Positions 1,284-50,175 are shown, counted from the stretch's first letter. The stretch: 64,000 nucleotides of DNA from an uncultured Gammaproteobacteria bacterium (GCA_964621305.1 CAZUOM010000001.1:229448-293447), one strand, 5' to 3'. Translations and numbers: made by a program. The notes: generated by a model not told the origin, from the sequence alone.

Positions 1284-3209
1284 TCAATTGATTTGCAGCA
1301 AGAACACCTCCTTTCGTTTAACGACATACAATCCATTAGGTCCGGGAAACAAATGCGACCCAGAATCTACCCATGGCTCGGTATCGGGAAATTCGCGCGT
1401 CTGGACGATTTGGCCGTTGGATAGTTCTACGCGAACAATTCCCTCATCTGTAGCGCAAAGGAGGAAATTGCCGATTGCGCATTTTCCACGGATCGTTCCA
1501 AGCCATGAATCGTCACCGTCTGGCATTTCAGCAGTCGCAAGAGTTGCTCCATCTCTGCTAATTACGGTGCAGCGGTTGATCGTTTTTGTTCCCTCGCGCA
1601 GACTCATGAAAAACCAGCAGAGGTCTTTGGAAAACACCGCCGTGGAGTCTATGAGTTGACCACGAATGGGCTGGATTTGCACTCGATCATTGATCCCCGG
1701 CCGCTCAGCGTCAAAAACAAACGCGACGCTGATGCCGCCGGCTTTGTAGAATCCAAATCCGAAGGTGGGACCAACCCAAAAAACCGTTTGCGCTTGTAAC
1801 ACCTCGCCCACCATCTCGGGTCCTAACTGACCATCCCGATAAAGGTGACCAGCAGAAACCCAGTATTTACGACGGGCATTGGCGTCAAACATAGGCAAGC
1901 TGCCATACGTATCAACAACTGTTTGCTCGGGTGTGGACTCATTGGGAGAAAACTCGAGGAGTCTTCCGCCCTTTGCAAGGAGAGTTTTTTCACCTTTCAG
2001 ACGAAATCGCACGAACGGATCTGGCTCAAACGATGCCACAACAGATCCACCTTCACGTTTCAATTTTCCGTCTTCATGGTACAGAATACGCAGTATCCCA
2101 TCCTGAAAAGCCGCATATACAATCGCCCCGTGGGTGCTAAAGATATTTTTCACGGTTACCTTCCCACGAACTTCTTTCTTCTCAACAGGCGCGGGCTTCG
2201 CACAACTGGGACAGATTGATCGCGCGTGCTCGGTCCCGCAATTGGTGCACTTGGTCCATCGAATCCTTTGAAGAATACCCAAAGGAAACTCGCCTCGCCA
2301 GTCCTTCTCAAATATTTCATGAAATTTTTGAAGGAGATCATCGGGAAGAATGCCCCAATGAGTGGCTGGCCTTGGATAAATCACGTTAGGGTGAAACACC
2401 GTAATTCGCCGCAATGGCCGTTCACCTTCAAGGACTCTCTGCGTTGGCTTCTTTGGTCGATAAACTCCGCCGTACGGCCCCACAAACAACAATGACTGGA
2501 ACAACATGACGGCATAAGCATACCAATCGGAGTTGGCATTATGCGGCTTAATGAGTTTAAGCGATGTCGCGCTATGGTCACAAAGCAGCGGATCTGCAAA
2601 CCGATCTGTATACATAGTACACAGGTATGGACCAAACTGTGAACTGTCTATGTCCACAAGCCACGCCCATGCTGTAGTACCAACGACGAGCACGTTGAGG
2701 TCGTTGTGATCGGCGATAATCACACCAGCTTTATGGACGCCGCACACAGTGGGATGATATCCGGTAAAGATTTCCATAACCATTTGGTTCGTGATACCGG
2801 CTTGCCGAAAATCTCGTGTTCCATAACGCATGAGCACTTCCGCGCCACTTAAGAATTTCATGGTGTATCCACGAACTTCACGACCAGTTTGGTCTGTGGC
2901 TAGATCAAGAGGCACAACGACATGTGACGGCAGACCTTTTGGAAGCTCACGAAGTTTACGTTGATGCGTTGCAATACGCTCTCGTGCCGCCTGTTGGTCA
3001 GCCGGTTGACCGTGAAAGTCAGGGTGATCCGGCGGCTTGAATATTTTGAGTGCTAGGTCAGATGCTATTTTATAAACATCCGCCTCGCCGCCGCTGCCGA
3101 TCGACTGGGTAGAATCAAGCGGAATCCGTTTCCCAGCCACATAGACACTGTTATACATCTTGTATTCCTTTCTTCGCTGGGATTTACTTCCGTTTCCGTC
3201 GACCGGCAA
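1284..3209 (-). CDS. atypical Ser/Thr protein kinase-like protein with C-terminal zinc ribbon and beta-propeller-like region
   Basis: Gly-loop 'IGSGGEADVYK', Lys 'ALKIF', catalytic-loop-like 'IIADHNDLNVLV' (RIO/Kdo-kinase style), 'LVDIDSS' (DFG-like). CxxC...CxxC 'CTNCGTEHARSICPSC'. Long beta-rich C-terminus. The true start may be an internal Met. Confidence 0.55.
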   Translation of the reverse strand: MPVDGNGSKSQRRKEYKMYNSVYVAGKRIPLDSTQSIGSGGEADVYKIASDLALKIFKPPDHPDFHGQPADQQAARERIATHQRKLRELPKGLPSHVVVPLDLATDQTGREVRGYTMKFLSGAEVLMRYGTRDFRQAGITNQMVMEIFTGYHPTVCGVHKAGVIIADHNDLNVLVVGTTAWAWLVDIDSSQFGPYLCTMYTDRFADPLLCDHSATSLKLIKPHNANSDWYAYAVMLFQSLLFVGPYGGVYRPKKPTQRVLEGERPLRRITVFHPNVIYPRPATHWGILPDDLLQKFHEIFEKDWRGEFPLGILQRIRWTKCTNCGTEHARSICPSCAKPAPVEKKEVRGKVTVKNIFSTHGAIVYAAFQDGILRILYHEDGKLKREGGSVVASFEPDPFVRFRLKGEKTLLAKGGRLLEFSPNESTPEQTVVDTYGSLPMFDANARRKYWVSAGHLYRDGQLGPEMVGEVLQAQTVFWVGPTFGFGFYKAGGISVAFVFDAERPGINDRVQIQPIRGQLIDSTAVFSKDLCWFFMSLREGTKTINRCTVISRDGATLATAEMPDGDDSWLGTIRGKCAIGNFLLCATDEGIVRVELSNGQIVQTREFPDTEPWVDSGSHLFPGPNGLYVVKRKEVFLLQIN

Positions 3210-4098
3210 TCAGAGTCGTATCGTCTCTAAGAATCGCAGCATACTTTGTTACGCGCTGCGCTCTGTAATCAATGCTCTGTGTCTCGCGACTCAAGAGATT
3301 GAGACGCATGGTCACAGCCGCTGGATTTTTGAAGTAGATATCTTCTGTCCAGAACTGAGATACCAACCCCACTTTTTGCTGTTGCCCGGGAACATTCTTA
3401 TCGACAGCTTTAAGCAAATAGTTCACGCCGTCACTGCCAATAAGAAAATTGACCAGTTGATCGGTTGCTATGATTTTTTGGATCCGAAATCGTAAGAGCG
3501 CCTGGTCAATCTTCACTTGTCCGGGCTCAAGTAATCCGTGTCCGAAATACGGCGGCTCATTGTCTGGAAACGGACCGATTTTCATGATATCGCTATTGAC
3601 GATCTCAATCCCGTCGCCGATGCTTACAAAAACCGAAATCTTCGGCGTTATAAGTACGCCGAGCACGGTAAAGAGGAAGTAGTCGAATACCACTTGAGTC
3701 AAACTACTGCCCATAGACCGGGCTAGTTCTCGAATTTTGGCAAGCGCATCTTGCCGGCAGCGCTCCCAAAACGCAGCTTGGGAAAAAACAGTCGAATTGG
3801 CATCCCTCGATAGAATCGCCAGAGCGTTCTCACCGATGATGGTCCCGATCACTGGTGCACCAAGAAGAGCGCCGACCTCGCTGAAATTTTTGCTAGTGCA
3901 ACCATCGGCTACAACGCCAATGATCACATTTTGATCGGAAAGAAGAAAGTGACCGTCCTGGTTATTAATACCCTTGAAGACGTGATCCCACCCGATCCGA
4001 CTCCCCATTGCAAACTCAAACTCACTTGACGGGTGACTGCCGAATGCGCGTGCGAATATCGATCTCATTGGACACTCCTTATGGTAAATTTTGCTCAA
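3184..4098 (-). CDS. PP2C-family Ser/Thr protein phosphatase
   Basis: 'GVVADGCTSKNFSEVGA' (DGxGG-like metal motif) and C-terminal 'LIGSDGV' typical of PPM/PP2C. Immediately upstream of the kinase on the same strand. Confidence 0.6.
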   Translation of the reverse strand: MSKIYHKECPMRSIFARAFGSHPSSEFEFAMGSRIGWDHVFKGINNQDGHFLLSDQNVIIGVVADGCTSKNFSEVGALLGAPVIGTIIGENALAILSRDANSTVFSQAAFWERCRQDALAKIRELARSMGSSLTQVVFDYFLFTVLGVLITPKISVFVSIGDGIEIVNSDIMKIGPFPDNEPPYFGHGLLEPGQVKIDQALLRFRIQKIIATDQLVNFLIGSDGVNYLLKAVDKNVPGQQQKVGLVSQFWTEDIYFKNPAAVTMRLNLLSRETQSIDYRAQRVTKYAAILRDDTTLIAGRRKRK

Positions 4099-5592: not shown

Positions 5593-6717
5593 ATGACGAA
5601 CAGATCGAACGGACTGAAATTCGCACTTAGTCTTTACAAGGCACTGCCGGAAAACGAAAACGTCTTTTTCTCACCTCTCAACATCCAGATGTGTCTTGCG
5701 AGGGCTGCCGTCGGCGCGCGGAACAACACCCGCCGGCAAATGGAAACCGTCATAGGTCTTACGGGCTTAACAGACGAGCAAATCGTCACATGGATCAAGG
5801 ACGCCTCTGACAGTCTCAACAGTGCCCGCGATGGCATCCTTACCACGGCAGCAAGAATCTACGCACAGGAAAGTTACCCGTTCATCAAGTCCTACATGGA
5901 TCTGATGGGACGAATTGCGGGTATCGAGGCGGTAGATTTTCGATCCGCATTTGAACGAGTACGCGCCGAAATCAACGGTTGGGTTGCAGGGGTTACTCAC
6001 AATCGGATCCTCAATCTACTCCCCGAAGGGTCGCTCGACGCGTTGACGCGGATGGTATTGGTGACAGCCATTTATTTCAAATACGATTGGCTGAGCAAGT
6101 TTACCGTCGCCAACACCAAGCCAGACACATTCCATGCAATCGCCGGAGACGTGACCGCGCCGATGATGCACCAAAGCGCGAAAGGCATTTTCTCTTATAC
6201 AGAAACCAAAACGTTCCAGGCCGTTGCACTGCCATACGTCGGCAGACGACTTTCTATGATCTGCCTTTTACCGAAAGGGGGCTTATCTGACTTTGAAAGA
6301 TTGCTTGACGATCAGCATCTTTCAGAGATACTGTGGCCGCTCCGTCCAGAACACGACCTTGAAGTACGGTTGTGGATGCCGAAATTTGAGATCGGTTGGG
6401 GTACTACGGATCTCACTCCAATGCTCAAATCGCTCGGTATGACCGACGCTTTCATTAGCATGGCTGACTTCAGCGGTATGGAGTCTAGCCGAGAACTCTA
6501 CATTGACGGCGTCTACCACAAGGCGTGGGGGAAAGTGGATGAAGAAGGATCGGAGATGGCCGCGGCGACTGCAACGGTTATGCGGTCACTAAGCATCACT
6601 CTCCCGCGCGAACCAGTCATTGTTCGTCTTGACCGCCCATACCTATACTTTGTCTATGATCACGACACAGAAACCATTCTTTTCATGGGCAGGCAAGCGA
6701 ATCCGACTCTGAAGTAA
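5593..6717 (+). CDS. serpin (serine protease inhibitor)
   Basis: N-terminal 'FFSPLNIQMCLA' and C-terminal 'RLDRPYLYFVYDHDTETILFMGRQANP' match serpin signatures (FxxDRPFLFxI...LFxG..xxP). Length is 374 aa. Confidence 0.85.
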   Translation: MTNRSNGLKFALSLYKALPENENVFFSPLNIQMCLARAAVGARNNTRRQMETVIGLTGLTDEQIVTWIKDASDSLNSARDGILTTAARIYAQESYPFIKSYMDLMGRIAGIEAVDFRSAFERVRAEINGWVAGVTHNRILNLLPEGSLDALTRMVLVTAIYFKYDWLSKFTVANTKPDTFHAIAGDVTAPMMHQSAKGIFSYTETKTFQAVALPYVGRRLSMICLLPKGGLSDFERLLDDQHLSEILWPLRPEHDLEVRLWMPKFEIGWGTTDLTPMLKSLGMTDAFISMADFSGMESSRELYIDGVYHKAWGKVDEEGSEMAAATATVMRSLSITLPREPVIVRLDRPYLYFVYDHDTETILFMGRQANPTLK

Positions 6718-10853: not shown

Positions 10854-11972
10854 TCATTGCGCTTTTCCGACTGTCCCGTCGGTCTTAACCACCACCCCAA
10901 ACAGTTGTTCAAGCTTCAAAATTGCAAGTTTAATGTAGGAGGCGTGCGAAGCAAACATGACGTCTTGCGTTATCCCCTTCCAGATCAGGTTACCCCCGAC
11001 GCCTATCCAACTGGCAAGCCTGGCATCATCAGCAGCCGCCGGAACCATGACCTCTGCGGTTTGGGGTTTGGGAATAAACAGAAAAACAGACGTAACAGGC
11101 CAAGCTTGAGCCGTCATACGGAAGTCTCCTACAGTCACCTTATCTAAAATGGAAATCCCCATAATATCGTTGAGATCTTCAATGCCAATTCCTGTTTCTT
11201 CTTTTAGCTCGCGTTTAGCAGCAGTTATAGCTTGTTCTATAACAGCAACTGCGCCGCCTTTAGACCACCCGGTTCTCGTCTTATCAATCATGCCGCCCGG
11301 CAGTGCGCGCCCTCCCCTATCGCTTCGCTCAATCAAAACAACTTCAAATTTATTATCATGAATCCGGATAATGACCGGATCGGCAGCTTCATTTGGCCCC
11401 AGGAACCAATAAAACCCCGGGCCGGTCACGATGCCTTCGGGACTTGTGACCGCCTCTTTAAACATCGGATGAATCGGAGATCCGTCAGAGGCAAGGATCA
11501 ATCTGGCAAACCGTTCGGTCCTTGCTATTTTGGCCCCGTCTCCTCGATACGCTTCAATCGCGAGATTTTTCAGTTTATTGGATAATCTTCCGTCTTCGAC
11601 AATATTCCGGTTCTCGTGGAGGCCAACATAATAAGCCGGGCGCATTCCTGGAAAACCAACAAGTTCGTCGACGGGTCTTCCTGATTTAAACCACTGAAAA
11701 TATTCTTTTTCCGTCCAATGAAGGCCCTGGGCTGGGTAGCCGGCAAAGTTGGCTCGATCTTTCATCGCCTGAAGCACTTCTTGGACTAATTCCGTGTGGC
11801 CGTAGCGAAAATCAATGGGAACGAGGCGATCCTGCGCTTTCACAACTGGAAGGCCCTCGCGCCTAAGCCCAAGGTGTTCGAGGGGATCGGCGTATCGGGT
11901 TAAAAGATCGGGCGCGCTGGCGCTTTCGATTGCCATGGACCGAATTATAGCCCTAAATATGATTTTTGACAA
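10854..11972 (-). CDS. NUDIX hydrolase with N-terminal extra domain
   Basis: Nudix box 'GGRALPGGMIDKTRTGWSKGGAVAVIEQAITAAKRELKEETGI' (GX5EX7REUXEEXGU). Confidence 0.6.
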   Translation of the reverse strand: MSKIIFRAIIRSMAIESASAPDLLTRYADPLEHLGLRREGLPVVKAQDRLVPIDFRYGHTELVQEVLQAMKDRANFAGYPAQGLHWTEKEYFQWFKSGRPVDELVGFPGMRPAYYVGLHENRNIVEDGRLSNKLKNLAIEAYRGDGAKIARTERFARLILASDGSPIHPMFKEAVTSPEGIVTGPGFYWFLGPNEAADPVIIRIHDNKFEVVLIERSDRGGRALPGGMIDKTRTGWSKGGAVAVIEQAITAAKRELKEETGIGIEDLNDIMGISILDKVTVGDFRMTAQAWPVTSVFLFIPKPQTAEVMVPAAADDARLASWIGVGGNLIWKGITQDVMFASHASYIKLAILKLEQLFGVVVKTDGTVGKAQ

Positions 11973-12019
11973 TAGACGGCTCCCCTATTATACTTACGCC
12001 CTATCGAGCTTGCTCTTTT

Positions 12020-12901
12020 TTATAACTTGAGACCTTTGAGGTAGGCTCGGAAGTCTCCGTTGAGATCCTTATGCGCCAGGGCAAACTCGACTACGGTTTT
12101 GAGGTACTCGAGCTTGTTGCCGGTGTCGTAGTATTTTCCATCGATAATCTCGCAGGCATACACCGGCCGCTTTTTCATAAGGGAAGCAATAGCGTCCACG
12201 AGCCAAATTTCGTTACCCTTGCCAGGCTTAAGGCGTGACAGCTCATCAAAAATATCCGGAGTAAGAACATAGCAGCCGTGGGCGGCTAAATTGCTGGGTG
12301 CCTCTTCGGTCGTGGGCTTCTCCATCATCTTTTTAATCTGCCAGATGTTAGCCTCAACTTTGACCGCATCCACGATCCCGTAGCGCGAGACGTCTTTTTT
12401 CGGCACGCGGACGGCAGAGATCACCGGGTCGCCATATTTTTCGAAAACGTCTATACACTGGCGCGCGCGCGGCGGGTGACTGTAAATGAATTCATCTCCC
12501 CAGATGGCGAGAAACGGCTCATCGCCGACTACGGTTTTGGCGCAGAGAACTGGCGTGCCGTTGCCGTAAGGGCCTTTCTGGCGGATGTAGATAAAGTTGG
12601 CTAGCTCCGCCGTCTTTTTAACCGACTCTAACAGTTCATGTTTACCCTGTTCTTTAAGCGTCTGGATTAGCTCGTTGGGGTAATCAAAATGGTCCTCGAT
12701 AGCCCGCTTGTGCCAGCCGGTGACTATAACGATATCCGTAATTCCGCTTGCTACCAGCTCCTCAACGACGTATTGAATAACGGGTTTGTCTACAATCGGC
12801 AGCATCTCCTTGGGCATCGCCTTGGTCTGGGGAAGAAACCGGGTACCGAAGCCAGCGGCCGGAATAACAGCTTTCCTAATTCGAGAAGGGATACGTTTCA
12901 T
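12020..12901 (-). CDS. galU: UTP--glucose-1-phosphate uridylyltransferase
   Basis: 'KAVIPAAGFGTRFLPQTKAMPKEMLPIVDKPVIQYVVEE' is the canonical GalU N-terminus. Confidence 0.85.
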   Translation of the reverse strand: MKRIPSRIRKAVIPAAGFGTRFLPQTKAMPKEMLPIVDKPVIQYVVEELVASGITDIVIVTGWHKRAIEDHFDYPNELIQTLKEQGKHELLESVKKTAELANFIYIRQKGPYGNGTPVLCAKTVVGDEPFLAIWGDEFIYSHPPRARQCIDVFEKYGDPVISAVRVPKKDVSRYGIVDAVKVEANIWQIKKMMEKPTTEEAPSNLAAHGCYVLTPDIFDELSRLKPGKGNEIWLVDAIASLMKKRPVYACEIIDGKYYDTGNKLEYLKTVVEFALAHKDLNGDFRAYLKGLKL

Positions 12902-18848: not shown

Positions 18849-18863
18849 CAAGGGGTCCCCTTG
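18849..18863. repeat. REP type 1 palindrome caaggggtccccttg (copy a, just after rplL stop)
   Basis: Near-perfect 15-bp palindrome. Same motif at 19075..19089 and 19611..19625. Confidence 0.8.
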
Positions 18864-18882: not shown

Positions 18883-19578
18883 CTATGTGTCTTGACCATC
18901 AATACTCATTGTATAAATAAATTCACTATCTCCCGCCTGGGATACAAAAGATTCATAGGACAAATGCGGATTCTTCCGAGAAAAGTAAGAAAGGATTTCA
19001 GTGGTAGACAGCCACATCGTCTTACGGCGACCAAGATAATCTAAATAAGACGAAGGCTGCTCTGACAACATTTCCAAGGGGACCCCTTGCAAAGCTAATG
19101 GGTTGCGATGAATATAGCGGGATAGATGCTGGAGCTGTTCATCGGTTGTGACCAGAACTGCTTTATAAACACCTTGATACAGCGGCCCTACCCGTTTATT
19201 TTTCCTATTAAAATACATCGTATATCGAGTGCATAACGAGTTCATAAATGTATCGACAGCTGTTCCCTCCTTCTGTTTGACTAAAAGATGAAAATGGTTC
19301 GGCATGAGACAGTAAGCAAAAAGACGTATCGAGCCAAAAAAATTGTTGAGTTGAAGTGATTTGAGAATCTTATGTTTCTCTTTTGAAGAAACGGTCGGGT
19401 CGGCCAAACGACTACGAAGAGACTTTTTGTCTTTCTGTAGAAGATATTCTTTCAGATACGACAAAAATACACTATAGTCTTGGGCATCTTGAAAGATAAT
19501 CCGCTTCTCTACTCCGCGATTGTAAATATGGTAATACCCATTGGTAACGTAAAGCTTTTCAGAGTTTTTTGCAGGCAT
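18883..19578 (-). CDS. REP-associated tyrosine transposase (IS200/IS605-like Y1 HUH transposase, RAYT), paralog 1
   Basis: 'YHIYNRGVEKRIIF' and HUH motif 'MPNHFHLL'. Flanked by REP type 1 palindromes, with one more inside the CDS (encoding ALQGVPLEM). Confidence 0.7.
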   Translation of the reverse strand: MPAKNSEKLYVTNGYYHIYNRGVEKRIIFQDAQDYSVFLSYLKEYLLQKDKKSLRSRLADPTVSSKEKHKILKSLQLNNFFGSIRLFAYCLMPNHFHLLVKQKEGTAVDTFMNSLCTRYTMYFNRKNKRVGPLYQGVYKAVLVTTDEQLQHLSRYIHRNPLALQGVPLEMLSEQPSSYLDYLGRRKTMWLSTTEILSYFSRKNPHLSYESFVSQAGDSEFIYTMSIDGQDT

Positions 19579-19607: not shown

Positions 19608-19628
19608 TTACAAGGGGTCCCCTTGTAA
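19608..19628. repeat. REP type 1 extended palindrome ttacaaggggtccccttgtaa (copy c)
   Basis: 21-bp palindrome 30 nt upstream of the RAYT-1 start. Confidence 0.8.
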
Positions 19629-43656: not shown

Positions 43657-43728
43657 TGCCGCTAGAAGGAATCGAACCCTCATCGTACCCTTAGGACGGG
43701 TCTGCTCTGTCCATTGAGCTATAGCGGC
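43657..43728 (-). tRNA. tRNA-Arg (anticodon CCU)
   Basis: Manual fold of the reverse complement: acceptor GCCGCUA/UAGCGGC, D-arm GCUC-AAUGGACA-GAGC, anticodon loop GUCCUAA, T-arm GAGGG-UUCGAUU-CCUUC. 72 nt. Confidence 0.7.
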
Positions 43729-43734
43729 TCGCGG

Positions 43735-43807
43735 TCGGAGAGCCGGGACTCGAACCCGGGACCTCATCGTCCCGAACGATGCGCGCTACCAACTGCGCCA
43801 CTCTCCG
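43735..43807 (-). tRNA. tRNA-Pro (anticodon CGG)
   Basis: Acceptor CGGAGAG/CUCUCCG, D-arm GCGC-AGUUGGUA-GCGC, anticodon stem CAUCG/CGAUG with loop UUCGGGA, T-arm CCGGG-UUCGAGU-CCCGG. 73 nt. Confidence 0.7.
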
Positions 43808-43975
43808 AAATTTTTGCGGGGCCAACCGAGCGCTCTACACTGAAAATTACTTCGTAATTTCCAGTGTAAACCAACTGTTTACTCGGTACATCTTTCAAGA
43901 TGTTACCGAGAGCTATACCCTCAGGCGATTTTCATTGTAGCAAATTTGCAGTTTTTGCGATATACTAGACTTCTC

Positions 43976-44626
43976 ATGAACTTATCCTTCAGGAAATCCT
44001 CCGATCCCCTGCCTCCTCCCCCAGTCCAAGTCATTCTTGCTTCCCAGTCCCTCGGCCGGCGGCACCTTCTGGAAAAACTGGGCATCCCGTTTCGGGTAGT
44101 AATTAGCCGCATTGAGGAAGAAAAAATTACTAACAGCGATCCTTTTCTCACTCTCAAAAAGCGGGCAGCAGCCAAGGCCGAGGAAGTTTCTAAAAATCCG
44201 CGCGTTTATTCCTTGCCGGAATCCGGCAAGGCACTGATAGTTGCAGCTGATTCAATGGGCGTCTTGGGCAAAAAAACTTTCGGCAAATCCCGCGATCGGG
44301 AGGACACAAAGGAAATTCTTAAAAATCTCATGGGCCGCACCCATGTATTCGCCACGCACACAGTAGCATTGTACCTTGAAAACCTAGAAGAGAAGAAACG
44401 GTGGGAAAAGCTCGTCAAAACGCGCGTAACGCTAAGAAAACTAACGGCAACCGAAGTCGATAGCTTCGTCAACCGCTACGACCTGTCCCGCTTTGCCGCC
44501 GGCTACGCGCTCAACGAAACCCCCTGGGATTTAGTCACCAAAATCGAGGGAAGCTACACGAATGTCATTGGCCTCCCGTTTGAAGTGCTTCTCCCTGTCC
44601 TTCGCCAACACAAGATTATCATCTGA
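43976..44626 (+). CDS. maf: Maf-like nucleoside triphosphate pyrophosphatase
   Basis: 'VILASQSLGRRHLLEKLGIPFRVV' and 'VAADSMGVLGKKTFGKSRDREDTKEIL' match the Maf family. Start at Met-11 of the track ORF. Confidence 0.75.
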   Translation: MNLSFRKSSDPLPPPPVQVILASQSLGRRHLLEKLGIPFRVVISRIEEEKITNSDPFLTLKKRAAAKAEEVSKNPRVYSLPESGKALIVAADSMGVLGKKTFGKSRDREDTKEILKNLMGRTHVFATHTVALYLENLEEKKRWEKLVKTRVTLRKLTATEVDSFVNRYDLSRFAAGYALNETPWDLVTKIEGSYTNVIGLPFEVLLPVLRQHKIII

Positions 44627-44780: not shown

Positions 44781-45971
44781 ATGAAGATCGACATGGACGA
44801 TTGGCGCATCCAAAGTATTGCACAGCTACAAGATCTCCTCAAGGGAACGGAGCGGTTTGTCGTATCTTTGGAGCACGGCTCCATTGAAGAAAAGTACCGG
44901 TTCATTGACCGTACCGTTGACCGCTTCCAGTATCAGACGCTTACGAGGAGACAGCGGCATGCCGTCTACCGCTATCTGCCAAAGGTGACGGGCTACAAGA
45001 AAGCCTAACTCCTCCGGCTCATCAAACGGGCAGTGGTGGGAAAACTCATACGGAAGGAGTACAAAAGGAGAAATCCCAACCGCATCTACACCAGTCGTGA
45101 TATTAAGCTCCTGGAGAAAACAGATGAGCTTCACCTTCGCCTCTCCGACCGGGCAACACAAGAAATTCTCCGACGTGAGTACGAAGTGTTCGACAAAAAG
45201 GAGTATCAAACCATTGCCCGTGTCTCTCATGGACACATCACCAATCTCCGGCATCACCCCCTCTATGTAAATGCGTACGTCAACCACACCAAAGCCCGAC
45301 TCATCCCCATCGGGATGACCAGACCTCCGGAAACCTACGGCAGGCCAGGCTCGATTCGGGTTGATACAGTCCACCAAAGAGACATCTACCACATTAACGC
45401 GGTGGATGAGATTACCCAGTGGGAAGTCCTGGTCTCTGTACCCGTCATCAGTGAAGTCTGCATGCTGCCGGCTATCTCTATCCTTCTTGACCAGTTTCCT
45501 TTCACGATCTTCAACTTCCACTCTGACCGGGGAGGAGAGGCGATCAACTATCTGGTTTCTGATTTTCTCCAGAAGCTCCTCATCACCCAGACCAAGTCAA
45601 GAGCACGTCACCCCAATGACAACGCGCTTGTGGAAACCAAAAACGGCAGTGTAGTCAGGAAGAACATGGGGTGGGAACACGTGAGCCAACAGTTTGCCGA
45701 TAGTTTCACTGTTTACTACCGTACCTGGTTCAACCCCTATCTCAACTTCCACCGGCCCTGTGCATTTCCGACCATAAATAAGGATGAGAAGGGAAAAACC
45801 AGGAAGGTCTATGAGATCTACCAAACCCCATATGATGCTCTCAAGGGCATTCCAGGGGCTCACAGGTTTTTGAAACCCGGGCAAACTTTTGAAAAACTTG
45901 ATACAATAGCCTATGCCATGAGTGACAATGAGTTTGCTGAACTGATACGGTATCATTTTTCGATTGAGTAG
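44781..45971 (+). mobile_element. IS481-like DDE transposase gene interrupted by an in-frame TAA (pseudogene or readthrough)
   Basis: ORFs 44781..45008 and 45033..45971 are in the same frame, separated by TAA at 45006. The C-terminal part has the integrase-core 'FHSDRGGEAINY' ... 'HPNDNALVETKNG' (DDE, rve). The N-terminal part has an HTH-like region. Confidence 0.6.
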
Positions 45972-45994: not shown

Positions 45995-46020
45995 TAGCTT
46001 CGCAAGGACTCTCCTTGCAA
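45995..46020. repeat. REP type 2 palindrome tagcttcgcaaggactctccttgcaa (copy a, upstream of RAYT-2)
   Basis: Palindromic core gcaagga(c/g)(t/a)ctccttgc. Copies at 46536..46561, 46742..46772, 49640..49669. Confidence 0.8.
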
Positions 46021-46048
46021 ATTATTTTCCTTCTGCTAGTATGGTTTC

Positions 46049-46744
46049 ATGCCCGCAAAACACGCAATCAAAGAGTTCGCGCCTCACGCCTACTACCACA
46101 TCTACAACCGCGGTGTAGAAAAACGCACCATTTTCCTCGACCAACAGGATCGCGCTGTCTTCCTTTCCTACCTCAAAGTGTATCTGCTCCCAAAAGAAAA
46201 AGACGTACTGCTCGGAGTTATTGCAAATCCAGAATCTTCATCCAAAGAAAAAGATCAGGCGCTGAAATTGTTGCGCCTCAATAACTTTGCTGATTCGCTT
46301 ACTCTGCTGGCGTTTTGTCTCATGCCCAACCATTTCCATCTCCTTATTAAACAAACAGACGCAATAACGATAGATCATTTTATGAGATCGTTCGGTACAC
46401 GGTACACGATGTATTTCAACCGGAAGTATCGTCGGGTAGGAGGATTGTTCCAAGGTGTCTATAAAGCCGTGCAAGTTGTAAGCAACGAACAACTTCTTCA
46501 CCTTTCTCGTTACATTCACCGCAACCCCATAGATCTAGCTTCGCAAGGAGAGTCCTTGCAAAACTTTAGCTACTCATCTTATCCCAAATATCTAGGAATA
46601 ACCCATACAGAGTGGGTCCATCCAGAAGATATTCTCTCCACTTTTCCAAAATCCGGCAAACGAGGTTACAAAGAATTTGTTGAAGGGCCATCAGATGAGG
46701 CCGGAAAACTGGCAATTGCCAAACTTATCATCGACGTTGACTAG
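46049..46744 (+). CDS. REP-associated tyrosine transposase (RAYT), paralog 2
   Basis: 'YHIYNRGVEKRTIF', 'MPNHFHLLIKQ' HUH motif. Highly similar to 18883..19578. REP type 2 lies upstream, at its stop codon, and inside the CDS (encoding LASQGESLQN). Confidence 0.7.
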   Translation: MPAKHAIKEFAPHAYYHIYNRGVEKRTIFLDQQDRAVFLSYLKVYLLPKEKDVLLGVIANPESSSKEKDQALKLLRLNNFADSLTLLAFCLMPNHFHLLIKQTDAITIDHFMRSFGTRYTMYFNRKYRRVGGLFQGVYKAVQVVSNEQLLHLSRYIHRNPIDLASQGESLQNFSYSSYPKYLGITHTEWVHPEDILSTFPKSGKRGYKEFVEGPSDEAGKLAIAKLIIDVD

Positions 46745-46772
46745 CTTCGCAAGGAGAGTCCTTGCGAAGCTA
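46742..46772. repeat. REP type 2 palindrome (copy c) overlapping the RAYT-2 stop codon
   Basis: tagcttcgcaaggagagtccttgcgaagcta, a perfect 31-bp palindrome apart from its centre. Confidence 0.8.
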
Positions 46773-47168
46773 AAACAGCAGGCTGATTTCCTTGGCTGCT
46801 GCCTCTGCCGAATCGGAGCGGTGGACGACGTTGCGGGGCTTATCAATGCCAAAATCTTTCCTGACAGTTCCTGGCGCGGCATCCGCCGGATCAGTCGGGC
46901 CACAAATATCAAACACAATCTGAATCGCACCATCTCCTTCTAGTACCATTGCTACGACGGGTGTACTCATCATTTGCCTACACAGCTCCGGAAAAAAGGC
47001 CTTATCCTTGTGGTGGGCATACCAGACGTCGAGGATATCCTGGGTCAGCCGGACCATCTTCAACCCGACGACAGCAAGCCCCACCTTTTCAAACCGGCTG
47101 ATGACTTCACCGATGATGTGCTGTTCCATCCCGTCGGGCTTGATTAAAACAACAGTTTTTTCTTTCAT
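46770..47168 (-). CDS. ndk: nucleoside diphosphate kinase
   Basis: 'KEKTVVLIKPDG' ... 'NVVHRSDSAEAAAKEISLLF' canonical NDK (the active-site His is in 'VVHRSDS'). Start at ATG 47168, as the upstream track start is out-of-family. Confidence 0.85.
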   Translation of the reverse strand: MKEKTVVLIKPDGMEQHIIGEVISRFEKVGLAVVGLKMVRLTQDILDVWYAHHKDKAFFPELCRQMMSTPVVAMVLEGDGAIQIVFDICGPTDPADAAPGTVRKDFGIDKPRNVVHRSDSAEAAAKEISLLF

Positions 47169-47274
47169 ATACTTCAAATATAAAATAGAAAAAGAAACGT
47201 GTCTACTACCAACCTGAACTTTCCTTCTTGACAATTTCAAAGTGTACATATAATTATTTCTGTTCGCAGAATGC

Positions 47275-47559
47275 ATGAAAAGGAGGTGGCAAAGTATGAA
47301 AAAATTAAAAAAAATACCGCATTTTAAAACCGAAGAGGAGGAGAATCGTTTTTGGCAGCGAGTGGATTCGACTCAATATGTAGATTGGGACAAGGCTGAG
47401 CATTGGGTTTTTCCTAATTTGAAATTAACATCTAGACCAATAACCTTGCACCTTCCGTGTGGCTTAATCAATGATTACAAACTCAAGGCCCACAAAATGG
47501 GACTACCATACCAGGGACTCATGAAACAAGTGCTGTATAAGGGACTCGCGACGATCTAA
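47275..47559 (+). CDS. BrnA-like antitoxin (orphan)
   Basis: 'KIPHFKTEEEENRFWQRVDSTQYVDWDKAEHWVFPNLKLTSRPITLHLPCGLINDYKLKAHKMGLPYQGLMKQVL' matches the BrnA/CopG-like antitoxin pattern. No BrnT upstream. Confidence 0.45.
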   Translation: MKRRWQSMKKLKKIPHFKTEEEENRFWQRVDSTQYVDWDKAEHWVFPNLKLTSRPITLHLPCGLINDYKLKAHKMGLPYQGLMKQVLYKGLATI

Positions 47560-48365
47560 CGAAACCGCTGCCCAAAATTATCGATTGCTTTGGCCTTATC
47601 CCAAACAAACTCAAAAAGCTGGCGCAGCATAGATGCGTATTCGCTGTTTGTCACCTGAATGGCCACCTCGTCTCCTATTTTGACGCCCCAAAAGACGATG
47701 GAGTCGTCAGTAATGAAAATGTCTTGCTTGATATCCAGAACTTTTTTGGGGATCAACCTGTGGCGGTAGAACTTCGTAGTATATTTTTTGTTGGTCGTCC
47801 AGGTCGTCGTACCGTCGGGAGCTATGGGGTCTTCTGAATTGGATATTGACCGGATGCGCACATTTTTTTCGACATTGATCTGCCTGAGCTCTTCCGTAAA
47901 AGCTGACCCCAGTTTATCGTTCCACTGGAGAGAGTCAAATACCAGGACCTCGGTATCTGGTTTTCTGCCACGGATAATCCACTCCATTTGTTTGAGGCCC
48001 CGCACGCCTTTGTAATACAAAACGGATGTTTGGCCAGGGTTACCGGCCACAATTTGTTCGCTAAACTGCCTGATTTTTTCAACTGATGCTTTCATCTCTC
48101 TGGTTTTGGCCTCGGATTCGAGGATTATGGTTTTGAAGCTGTCAGCACTGGAAACGTTGTAAAAGCTGGTTTTCTCCCCTAGCTGGGTAACCACGAGGCC
48201 TTTTTCAATCAGAGACTCAAGGACTCTGTAGATAGTTGACCGCTTTATTGGACAATTTTTGGATAACTGCACCACCGTACTCCAGCCTTTTTTTACAAGG
48301 AGCAGATAAACCTTCTGTTCATCATCAGTAAGTCCAAAAACGCTGAGATCTTCCGTAATGGTCAT
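47556..48365 (-). CDS. TrmB-family transcriptional regulator
   Basis: N-terminal 'FGLTDDEQKVYLLLVKKGWSTVVQLSKNCPIKRSTIYRVLESLIEKGLV' TrmB wHTH. C-terminal sugar-binding-like domain. Confidence 0.6.
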   Translation of the reverse strand: MTITEDLSVFGLTDDEQKVYLLLVKKGWSTVVQLSKNCPIKRSTIYRVLESLIEKGLVVTQLGEKTSFYNVSSADSFKTIILESEAKTREMKASVEKIRQFSEQIVAGNPGQTSVLYYKGVRGLKQMEWIIRGRKPDTEVLVFDSLQWNDKLGSAFTEELRQINVEKNVRIRSISNSEDPIAPDGTTTWTTNKKYTTKFYRHRLIPKKVLDIKQDIFITDDSIVFWGVKIGDEVAIQVTNSEYASMLRQLFEFVWDKAKAIDNFGQRFR

Positions 48366-48452
48366 ACCTGTCCACCATTATGGACAACAGTTGGACAAAA
48401 ATCAAGACCGCTTCTATACTATGGGACTGTTCTTTGAGGGAGGTGAAATTTT

Positions 48453-48746
48453 ATGTCAGAACACATTAGGCCATCTTCTCAAGAAGAGGTAATCATTAGA
48501 AATGCGTTTCGTCGGGAAAAGACGAGAGGAAGGTGGCCAACAAAACAAGCAAAAGACCGAGAACTGGTCGGAACCGCTTTACATGTACTGAAAGATCATC
48601 CAGAAGATGATTTTAGCGAACAAATGTATCGTCATATTGCTGCAACGTGCAGAGAGGAACTGCCTAGGGTGTCAGCTCCAGGTGATACCGTTGATGTGGA
48701 GACTTGGCATCGTTTGACCCTCTTTATTAAGGAAGCAATTGGGTGA
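48453..48746 (+). CDS. hypothetical protein
   Basis: 97-aa ORF. Confidence 0.3.
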   Translation: MSEHIRPSSQEEVIIRNAFRREKTRGRWPTKQAKDRELVGTALHVLKDHPEDDFSEQMYRHIAATCREELPRVSAPGDTVDVETWHRLTLFIKEAIG

Positions 48747-48888
48747 CAGGAGGAGAGGAATGTAAAGCTTAAGTATGGAGTAAAAAGGGAGTTTTTTCTT
48801 TTCTTCCAACATTTCGCCCTAAAATATCAGGAGCTTCAAATAAAACTCGCTCAATCGTGGTAATTTTCTTCAGATAGTTTCAGTATAG

Positions 48889-50175
48889 TTACAGCTTAAG
48901 CATGTATTCAAGTTTTTCATCTCTCGGTTTGTTCCACACCAGTGCCATATTGAGGGTTTTTGTGACCAGATACTTTCTTACTAGTCGGTTGATGTCCTCT
49001 TTTGTAACCTTTTCTATCTTTTTGAGATATTCATCCAGCGTCAAAATGGGCTGACCGAAGACTTCCTGCCGTCCGTAAAACTCGGTCATAAACTCCGGGT
49101 CCTCAGCTTTAAATGCCATCATGGTTTTGATCCGTTTTTTGGCAACAGCAACTTCTTTCTCCGTTACTCCTTTCTCTCCCGCTTTTGCCAACTCTGCCAG
49201 TATTGCTTGTGTTGCTTGTGTTACTTTCTCTGTAGCCACACCAGCATAGATACTCCAGTACCCCACGTCTGCCCAGTTATTGGAGTTTGACCGGATGTGG
49301 TAACACAGTCCCCGCTTTTCGCGGATTTCCTTAAATAGCCGGCTGGTAAACGAGACACCCATAAGGAGATTAAAGACATTCCATGCAAACCGATCCTCGC
49401 TCCCCCGGCAAAACGTACGAAAGCCTAAAACCAGATGCGCCTGACTCGCATCGGGCTTGGTGACGACCTCAAGCTTGGGCTTACTTTGATGATTAACGAT
49501 CCTCTCCGCCTCCTCGGCGGACCCGCCGGTGAGGCTGGCAAACCACTCTTCTGTTTTCTGTCTGACGGCTGATGACTGACGACTGATGGCTCCTGCCAAC
49601 ACCACCACCATCCTACCAGGCGTGTACCAACGATCGTAGTAGCTTCGCAAGGACTCTCCTTGCAAAGCTAAGAGGCTTTCTGGTTCGCCGATTGTTCGCA
49701 TGCCGAGGCTAGTCGCTGGGTACATCATCGTGTGAAACGTTTCTTCTACTTTTGCTTCCGGCTCATCCTCGTAACGCTTCATTTCTTCGAGAATCACGCT
49801 GCGCTCCCGGTCGATGTGCTTCTGTTCGATTAATGGCGCCAGAGCAAGCTCGCGATTTATCTCTAGCGCTAGCTCCCAATCAGTGCTTAATACCTTGTTG
49901 TGGTAGTTGGTGATATCTATATCTGTATAGGCGTTTTGCAGCCCACCGATCCGCTCAATGATGTTGACGTCGTCGGTGGTAGGGTACCTTTTGGTTCCTT
50001 TGAAGACCATATGCTCCAAGAAATGGGAAACTCCGTTAATATCTTTGGTTTCGTAGCGGCTGCCCACCGCCACCATGACAGCCGTTGCCACACTGTTGAC
50101 GCCCTGCATTGGGACGAGAATGAGCCGAACGCCGCTTGGGAGGGTGGTTTTGTCGTAAGGGTTCCCTGTCTGCAT
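48889..50175 (-). CDS. M16-family (pitrilysin/insulinase-like) zinc peptidase
   Basis: 'HFLEHMVFKGT' inverted zinc motif HxxEH. 428 aa. Carries an in-frame REP type 2 copy (49640..49669, encoding LALQGESLRS) and a CTGATG-rich repeat (49541..49580). Confidence 0.8.
   Translation of the reverse strand: MQTGNPYDKTTLPSGVRLILVPMQGVNSVATAVMVAVGSRYETKDINGVSHFLEHMVFKGTKRYPTTDDVNIIERIGGLQNAYTDIDITNYHNKVLSTDWELALEINRELALAPLIEQKHIDRERSVILEEMKRYEDEPEAKVEETFHTMMYPATSLGMRTIGEPESLLALQGESLRSYYDRWYTPGRMVVVLAGAISRQSSAVRQKTEEWFASLTGGSAEEAERIVNHQSKPKLEVVTKPDASQAHLVLGFRTFCRGSEDRFAWNVFNLLMGVSFTSRLFKEIREKRGLCYHIRSNSNNWADVGYWSIYAGVATEKVTQATQAILAELAKAGEKGVTEKEVAVAKKRIKTMMAFKAEDPEFMTEFYGRQEVFGQPILTLDEYLKKIEKVTKEDINRLVRKYLVTKTLNMALVWNKPRDEKLEYMLKL
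49640..49669. repeat. REP type 2 palindrome (copy d) inside the M16 peptidase CDS
   Basis: tagcttcgcaaggactctccttgcaaagcta. Confidence 0.8.

Follow-up and report, generated by a model that had tools for sequence, protein, structure and literature searches.

The genome stretch analysed here (GCA_964621305.1, CAZUOM010000001.1:229448-293447; 64,000 nucleotides, hereafter the window) carries two genes of the RAYT family, the tyrosine transposases associated with repetitive extragenic palindromes (REPs), and each of them holds a copy of its own palindrome, translated in frame, within the gene. The system is probably a REP-RAYT module ('REPtron') belonging to a genome of Candidatus Gottesmanbacteria (Patescibacteria), and its unusual form is conserved throughout the family; a further copy of one palindrome, found in the gene of an M16 peptidase, would be a passenger of this module. 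The residence of a cognate REP in frame at conserved sites of a RAYT gene appears to be new, and no mention of it was found in PMC3733652, Nunvar 2010 (PMC2817692), Quentin 2018 or Bertels 2011 (PMC3116915). The palindrome of the second RAYT gene, REP-2 (TAGCTTCGCAAGGAGAGTCCTTGCGAAGCTA, 31 nt), has four copies in the window, lying 5' of RAYT-2, within RAYT-2, at its stop codon and in frame in the peptidase gene:

45995..46024, no strand assigned: REP-2 upstream of RAYT-2, with an exact core at 46002-46018 and a 7-bp hairpin (z = -4.3).
46049..46744, plus strand: RAYT-2, a Y1 HUH tyrosine transposase-like gene of 231 codons, with HUH at H95/H97 and the catalytic tyrosine at Y155.
46536..46566, plus strand: REP-2 within the RAYT-2 coding sequence ('site B'), encoding LASQGESLQN, residues 163-172, straight after the helix of the catalytic tyrosine.
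46742..46772, no strand assigned: REP-2 at the RAYT-2 stop codon, a perfect palindrome with a 14-bp stem (DNA fold -15.9 kcal/mol, z = -7.3).
48889..50175, minus strand: gene of an M16 (pitrilysin/insulinase family) peptidase of 428 residues, with Pfam Peptidase_M16 and Peptidase_M16_C matches.
49640..49670, minus strand: REP-2 within the peptidase coding sequence, encoding LALQGESLRS, residues 169-178 (fold -12.6 kcal/mol, z = -6.2).

A preliminary description of the window had placed REP-2 at these four sites, and scans with the core and with the whole repeat, set against shuffled sequence, bear this out. The 17-nt core GCAAGGASWSTCCTTGC (GCAAGGA-SWS-TCCTTGC) occurs exactly four times (46002, 46543, 46749 and 49647), against a chance expectation of 0.05 from shuffles of the 64 kb, and the 31-nt repeat is matched at 46536-46566 with two mismatches and at 46742-46772 and 49640-49670 with none, there being no match in 100 shuffles. 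The upstream copy (45995-46024) has kept the left arm and the 7-bp stem, its outer right arm being degenerate, and it is inverted relative to the downstream one, with the loop CTC in place of the GAG of the other RAYT-2 copies. The internal copy, at an offset of +32 nt from the tyrosine codon, retains the 7-bp apical stem and the loop (z = -1.7), and in the AlphaFold model the residues it encodes form a lower-confidence loop directly after the tyrosine helix. The stem at 46742-46772 is the longest hairpin in the window. It leaves no free space between RAYT-2 and the gene of a nucleoside diphosphate kinase (NDK), which converges on RAYT-2, and the TAG and CTA at the ends of this palindrome serve as stop codons, the former for RAYT-2 and the latter, read on the opposite strand, for NDK. 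The copy in the peptidase gene is identical to this intergenic member of the same repeat family at 30 of 31 nt. In an older, independent assembly made from the same organism (GCA_005239695.1, contig SBBN01000039.1), which is 100% identical over positions 46751-67155 in window numbering, the contig stops halfway through the stop-codon palindrome of RAYT-2; repeats and hairpins cause breaks of this sort in short-read assembly. None of the hairpins matches an RNA family in Rfam, whose only hits in the window are two adjacent tRNA genes (43657-43807, minus strand).

The assignment of the two transposase-like proteins rests on both sequence and predicted structure. Pfam Y1_Tnp (PF01797) matches RAYT-2 (E 2.7e-9) and RAYT-1 (E 4e-10), and an alignment of 33 homologues shows no variation at H95, H97 and Y155. 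The best and only NCBIfam match is REP_Tyr_transpos (NF047646), at 42.5 and 47.2 bits, which does not reach the cutoff of 80 bits. The AlphaFold model of RAYT-2 (pLDDT 83) has as its top Foldseek match in the PDB the Escherichia coli TnpAREP bound to a REP hairpin (4er8_A, E 1.8e-6, probability 1.00, with a TM-score of only 0.40/0.53), and TnpA proteins of IS200/IS605 rank behind it. A sequence-profile search of the PDB yielded nothing at E <= 0.01, with a weak match to ISDra2 at E 0.06. The names attached to the homologues are those of Candidatus Gottesmanbacteria and other Patescibacteria, and many of them lie on very short contigs. The view that RAYT-2 is a paralogue of RAYT-1 with a different palindrome also held, the two proteins being 57% identical and REP-1 having the core CAAGGGGWCCCCTTG:

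18849..18863, no strand assigned: REP-1 core on the 3' side of RAYT-1, in the interval from the RAYT-1 stop codon to the next gene, which is convergent.
18883..19578, minus strand: RAYT-1, paralogue of RAYT-2 (57% amino-acid identity), with its own palindrome.
19075..19089, minus strand: REP-1 core within the RAYT-1 coding sequence, encoding ALQGVPLE, +27 nt from the tyrosine codon.
19611..19625, no strand assigned: REP-1 core upstream of RAYT-1, from the sequence scan and fold.
46770..47168, minus strand: NDK gene (Pfam NDK, E 1e-48), convergent on RAYT-2, its stop codon within the REP.

Both genes are thus bracketed by the cognate palindrome, as are the RAYT genes in most of the 60 related loci described below, and the two internal copies align at one protein position, right after the catalytic-tyrosine motif RYIHRNP. 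The proposal that each RAYT carries its cognate REP at a homologous place in its own gene is supported by this alignment and extends to the whole RAYT clade. The clade was sampled as 120 homologues of RAYT-2 at the protein level and as 80 related loci from metagenomes at the DNA level, 60 of them with a flanking hairpin; an internal match was scored where the apical core of the flanking hairpin recurred within the coding sequence with at most 2 mismatches in 15-21 nt. In these loci, a hairpin scan found locus-specific palindromes upstream of, inside and downstream of the gene. The flanking hairpin recurs in the coding sequence in 26 of the 60 loci (Patescibacteria RAYTs), compared with 0-3 matches per 200 trials in shuffled coding sequences, and its positions are limited to two: site B, +20 to +51 nt from the tyrosine codon (21 loci), and site A, -236 to -277 nt from it (12 loci). 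Both sites fall in parts of the protein alignment that vary in length, site A lying before the HUH motif. From one locus to another the hairpins are unrelated (e.g., CCTGCAGGGCCAGGCCCTGCAGG, CTTTCGGGAGACTCCCGAAAG, TGACAGGGTCTCGCCCTGTCA, AAAAGGTTAAACCTTTT and TCGCAAGGCGTCCCCTTGCGA) or differ by compensated stem changes, while the copies of one locus have identical stems and loops.

The same pattern can be read from the proteins. Nearly all of the 120 homologues have A-[SL]-[QK]-[GD]-x-x-[LF]-[RQ]-x-Y after RYIHRNP, with the two middle residues hypervariable, and the covariation of residues mirrors base pairing: G (GGn) goes with S, T, A or P (nCC), D (GAn) with L (nTC), and K (AAR) with F or L. 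From the peptides of two close homologues alone, a CAAGA...TCTTG stem was predicted for ASQDTLLQNY and an GGTACTTCC apex for ASQGTSLRSY, and both predicted flanking repeats are present in loci L162 and L163, as upstream doublets and at the stop codon. In L100, one palindrome is read in two frames at two sites of one gene (SLQGQALQA and LPAGPGPAG), and in L102 the two readings are LSGDSRK and PFRESPER. A palindrome whose frame of translation changes from site A to site B is therefore conserved at the level of nucleotides and not of the peptide. A further locus, L057, has two different RAYT paralogues (3035-3721 and 5824-6375) flanking an M16 peptidase in one Patescibacteria genome; the first of them carries the palindrome TACCGTGCAAGGTCCGACCTTGCACGGTA at site A, and this palindrome also occurs in frame in an open reading frame (ORF) of 304 codons at 12900.

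In the explanation that we favour, a RAYT gene sits embedded in an array of its own hairpin, with one or two copies upstream, one over the stop codon and one, or in relatives sometimes two, translated in frame; the in-frame copies occupy two loops of variable length, one before the HUH motif and one at the junction of catalytic core and C-terminal tail. The RAYT would bind and nick its own hairpin on single-stranded DNA, and copies would spread, and be kept alike, through RAYT-dependent strand transfer, short-patch gene conversion or both. As these genomes have almost no intergenic space, copies would often land in, or overwrite, coding DNA and would last only where the roughly ten residues they encode are tolerated. 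The peptidase copy is probably one such passenger, in which REP-2 overwrote a stretch of an interdomain linker of the same length; old copies of this kind decay.

A less probable explanation, although the strongest of the competitors, is that the internal hairpins act in cis on the RAYT gene as functional elements, the peptidase copy being a by-product. Through site B, RAYT expression might come under the control of the enzyme itself or of a structure in RNA or DNA; the site might set the ratio of full-length, autoinhibited to truncated, hyperactive protein, or act as a protected 'master copy' by which RAYT and REP are coupled. Such a role would fit the identity of internal copies and flanks in 26 of 60 loci at two positions only, and it would fit the location of site B, which is where minimal Y1 transposases end: TnpA of ISDra2 ends about six residues after the tyrosine, and the Pfam match of the RAYT ends at residue 159. 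In E. coli TnpAREP, a tail that starts at the corresponding place is autoinhibitory, and its deletion makes the enzyme hyperactive (PMC3479197); IS200 hairpins limit tnpA expression, according to a passage of PMC3733652 that cites this. Against a cis-acting role, 34 of the 60 loci with a flanking hairpin lack an internal copy, which makes it dispensable; the two internal copies of the window keep the 7-bp apical stem only (with the weak z-score given above for RAYT-2), and no T-tract or other terminator feature accompanies them.

The possibility that RAYT-2 and its flanking hairpins form an autonomous insertion sequence of the IS200/IS605 type, of about 780 bp, and not a domesticated RAYT, the other copies being solo ends or footprints, is improbable. 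Members of this family (IS608, ISDra2, IS200) have the same catalytic fold, their subterminal hairpins are recognised on single-stranded DNA, and hairpins near tnpA can limit its expression. They also have distinct left and right ends, act as obligate dimers, occur in multiple identical copies and insert at a target tetra- or pentanucleotide with a gain in length. In favour of such an element are the hairpins that bracket a single Y1 gene, the IS200-like size, the adjoining ORF that resembles a DDE integrase, the break of the short-read assembly at the downstream hairpin and the many homologues on very short contigs. Yet the same palindrome stands at both ends of RAYT-2; the window holds two divergent paralogues, RAYT-1 being the only other copy and just 57% identical, and no identical second copy was seen there. 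The best fold match is moreover the monomeric TnpAREP, ahead of the IS200/IS605 transposases, and a RAYT, albeit of a different subfamily, occupies the same syntenic position beside NDK in locus L013. The gene order peptidase-NDK-RAYT recurs in that locus, with the RAYT convergent on NDK and downstream of the peptidase; it belongs to the subfamily with the classical NPxxxGxVK...PWSS motif, has no internal copy and is flanked by AGCTTTACACATCCGATGTGTAAAGCT (11932-11975 and 12692-12735). RAYTs of this PWSS type flanked by AGCTTTACACATCCGATGTGTAAAGCT were also seen in L033 and L058.

For the copy in the peptidase, comparison with orthologues points to replacement. The closest solved relative of the enzyme is a protease of Bacillus halodurans (3HDI, E 4e-62). 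The site has equal length in all 120 database orthologues and in 68 orthologues from species-representative genomes, no gap occurring in the 188, and residues 113 to 215 align without a gap with 3HDI and with mitochondrial MPP-beta. It follows from the gapless site in orthologues and solved structures that the 31 nt occupy ten pre-existing codons, as a same-length replacement; these ten codons are, on the evidence of the alignments, an ancestral part of the M16 fold. The preliminary description had REP-2 inserted into the peptidase, which the absence of any length change contradicts. It had also suggested comparing the ten-residue segment with orthologues, an insertion being doubtful if all of them had the segment without the palindrome: the segment is indeed of the same length everywhere, and most, though not all, orthologues are non-palindromic there (e.g., SLRSVASKELKEYH or SMKAADASTLRAYH).

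In the structural model, the segment lies at a helix-turn-helix junction in the interdomain linker (pLDDT ~60). The native linker has the pattern L-x7-L-[RK]-x-Y, which is mimicked by the REP frame, L-A-x-Q-G-x-x-L-R-x-Y, with the nearly invariant L168, L176 and Y179 retained, and the palindrome would be tolerated at this site because the frame keeps these three residues. The overwriting of coding DNA by a REP at constant length appears to be new, and its mechanism is inferred. Three other origins were considered and rejected: a single ancient insertion followed by decay, as the length of the segment is ancestral to the M16 fold; convergence by point mutation, as, within one clade, carrier alleles depart from non-carrier alleles at about 20 of 36 nt; and, for the palindrome in the peptidase of L013, the RAYT next to it, which is of a different subfamily and has the unrelated REP AGCTTTACACATCCGATGTGTAAAGCT. 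About 35 codons 3' of the palindrome site (window ~49480-49560) there is a loop of variable length, the peptidases ranging from 425 to 475 residues, and in L156 (4263-4452) and L157 (3255-3369) this loop holds other small palindromes, e.g., ATCCTCGGGCTTGACCCGAGGAT.

A minority of peptidase orthologues have a palindrome at exactly these codons, with various stems and loops; carriers checked on DNA are the window, L002, L006, L013, L073, L074, L075, L156, L158 and L159, and about 60 of the 68 genome orthologues, the closest of which is 74% identical to the peptidase of the window, are without one. Judged by the sequence outside the site, and with a neighbour-joining tree that is crude, carriers and non-carriers are intermingled: P0032 shares 84% identity with a non-carrier and at most 76% with any carrier, and P0046 shares 90.5% with the non-carrier P0072. 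The non-carrier sequences are clade-specific and conserved. L156, a carrier, and L157, a non-carrier, show 0-1 mismatch per 50 nt over several kb, save for a patch of ~375 nt that begins at most 20 nt 5' of the palindrome and in which L156 equals L158, a carrier that is divergent elsewhere. From this one clean trio, carrier and non-carrier alleles evidently move between lineages by homologous recombination, and scattered carriers need not, for this reason, mean many independent origins; the mosaic weakens the idea of a strict independent gain in every carrier lineage. In the allele group with LASKGETLRG ('KGETL' palindromes), three independent uncompensated changes break the stem of the inferred perfect palindrome, two of them synonymous. 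Such decay fits a passenger under selection at the protein level, which is what the peptidase palindrome looks like. The copy of the window shares with the RAYT-2 REP both the loop and a T-A pair that is C-G in L075, which points to a recent origin from the local REP or to conversion by it.

It is very unlikely that the peptidase palindrome is instead a hairpin of mRNA or DNA that is selected in the peptidase gene itself and evolves by compensatory change, its likeness to a REP being incidental. The recurrence of palindromes with different stems at the same codons in several lineages would agree with this, as would at least one compensated pair difference, the T-A versus C-G just mentioned. 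Most genome orthologues do without the hairpin, however, the alternative sequences are themselves conserved within clades, carrier alleles lose their stems through uncompensated synonymous changes, and the copy in the window matches the resident RAYT-2 REP, loop included, at all but one position. Least credible of all, and refuted by the alignments, is that REP-2 was added to the peptidase as ten extra residues in the manner of Rickettsia palindromic elements (RPEs): the copy is in frame and near-identical to a REP 3 kb away, and REPs that add length are real in LepA of related genomes, but no gap separates the enzyme from its 120 + 68 orthologues, 3HDI or MPP-beta, and 31 nt is not a multiple of three.

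REPs commonly occur in the coding DNA of these genomes. In a scan of 1.14 Mb of Gottesmanbacteria loci, REPs of the same type, TAGCTTCGCAAGG-N5-CCTTGCGAAGCTA, are intergenic in several genomes, often overlap gene ends and also lie within large ORFs. In the LepA/EF4 gene of L033, a REP doublet (3160-3204) lengthens the loop after VRIVDG by 10-11 residues, and different REP-like inserts occupy the same loop in L051 (3613), L076 and L008. Insertions that add length thus exist beside the case of equal length, and the earlier suggestion that REPs tolerate in-frame residence in proteins stands as a general statement, for which there is also published support (PMC3733652), without applying as an insertion to the peptidase copy, which adds no residues. 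Further along the LepA gene of L033 there is a perfect palindrome of 50 nt (3705-3754). The palindrome CCTTTAAAGGTCNNACCTTTAAAGG (PLKVxPLKD) occurs at one site of an apparent arginyl-tRNA synthetase in L012 (2249-2273) and L019 (4569-4593), which are 62% identical, and a third copy lies in an ORF of 194 codons in L009 (7357-7381).

Several points weigh against the explanation by a REP-RAYT module with a passenger in the peptidase. Classical IS200/IS605 or REPIN movement lengthens its target, and no known HUH reaction accounts for the replacement of exactly 31 nt by 31 nt. The 5' GTAG tag is not conserved in the four REP-2 copies, which start with TAGC preceded by T, C, C or G, so that REP-2 lacks this feature of classical RAYT substrates. 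In ~67 kb of the source genome, a single REP copy out of seven (one of four for REP-2, none of three for REP-1) lies away from a RAYT gene, and the 3.2 kb beyond one window edge contain no REP. The RAYTs score under the NCBI equivalog cutoff, which, by sequence, marks them as a divergent subfamily. The upkeep of identical internal copies in 26 loci could mean functional cis-elements and not passengers, and the L156/L157/L158 trio gives no indication which allele is derived. Binding, nicking and strand transfer by the RAYT, finally, are attributed to it by analogy with E. coli TnpAREP (PMC3479197).

The E. coli REPtron (Nunvar 2010, PMC2817692; Messing 2012, PMC3479197) resembles the module in the Y1 HUH fold with HUH motif and catalytic tyrosine, in the cognate palindromes that flank the gene, at least one of them inverted, and in a C-terminal extension past the tyrosine helix. 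It differs in that the RAYT genes studied here have their cognate palindrome within the translated sequence too, in one or two conserved places, the tag is missing, the protein is longer (231 residues) and below the NCBIfam cutoff, and the host is a reduced Patescibacteria genome with a low copy number in the ~67 kb seen. In Pseudomonas (Bertels and Rainey 2011, PMC3116915; PMC3337134), several divergent RAYT paralogues likewise have a REP family each, and REPINs recall the REP doublets beside the gene, here upstream in L162 and L163; Pseudomonas REPINs, in contrast, are extragenic and number hundreds, and in-frame copies in the RAYT are not described. Palindromic elements of Rickettsia reportedly lie in frame in genes. 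With these RPEs and with the intragenic GTAG/CGTC REPs (Di Nocera 2013, PMC3733652), the peptidase copy shares the residence of a palindromic repeat in frame in a housekeeping gene, but theirs add 20-30 or more residues and it adds none. Intragenic REPs, and REP termini that supply TAG stops to flanking genes, were already published for those other bacteria, as were hits at about the same gene site in related species; only 5' and 3' overlaps with the RAYT are reported there, not residence inside its gene (PMC3733652).

Around these genes, an ORF of 312 codons directly 5' of RAYT-2 (45033-45971, plus strand) has weak matches to IS3 and IS481 DDE transposases, far under the cutoffs, and may have displaced a second upstream REP, the window having one inverted copy where L162 and L163 have a doublet. 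Between NDK and the peptidase lie a CopG-type antitoxin-like gene and a TrmB-family regulator (47296-47559 and 47556-48365); in L074 and L158, NDK comes directly after the peptidase, so that this interval is variable. A palindrome with a 10-bp stem, CCTTGCCGGAATCCGGCAAGG, is located at 44211-44231 (plus strand) in a Maf-like gene (43946-44626), where it encodes SLPESGKA; it has one copy in the window and is unrelated to REP-1 and REP-2.

To our knowledge, the mobility of REPs has been reconstituted by no one, and how RAYTs and REPs stay matched over long times, and how REPs are copied, are open questions. The internal hairpin of the RAYT gene offers a direct experimental handle on this matching, and a hairpin within the gene that changes in step with the flanks across dozens of loci constitutes a natural covariation dataset for RAYT-REP specificity. 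A bolder and rather doubtful idea, which we advance as speculation, is that the RAYT, or a repair pathway that it triggers, overwrites DNA with the cognate hairpin at unchanged length; such a templated 'hairpin exchange' would keep the 3-5 copies at a RAYT identical while the type of hairpin evolves, and it could rewrite other genes in frame. If this were true, the REP-delimited segments of RAYT genes, and the recombination patch that begins at the palindrome in the peptidase, would have arisen by REP-anchored conversion set off by a nick. Replacement at equal length in the gene of a conserved protease shows that palindromic repeats can rewrite coding DNA without insertions or deletions, which bears on annotation, on alignment-based tests of selection and on the assembly of the reduced genomes of the candidate phyla radiation (CPR).

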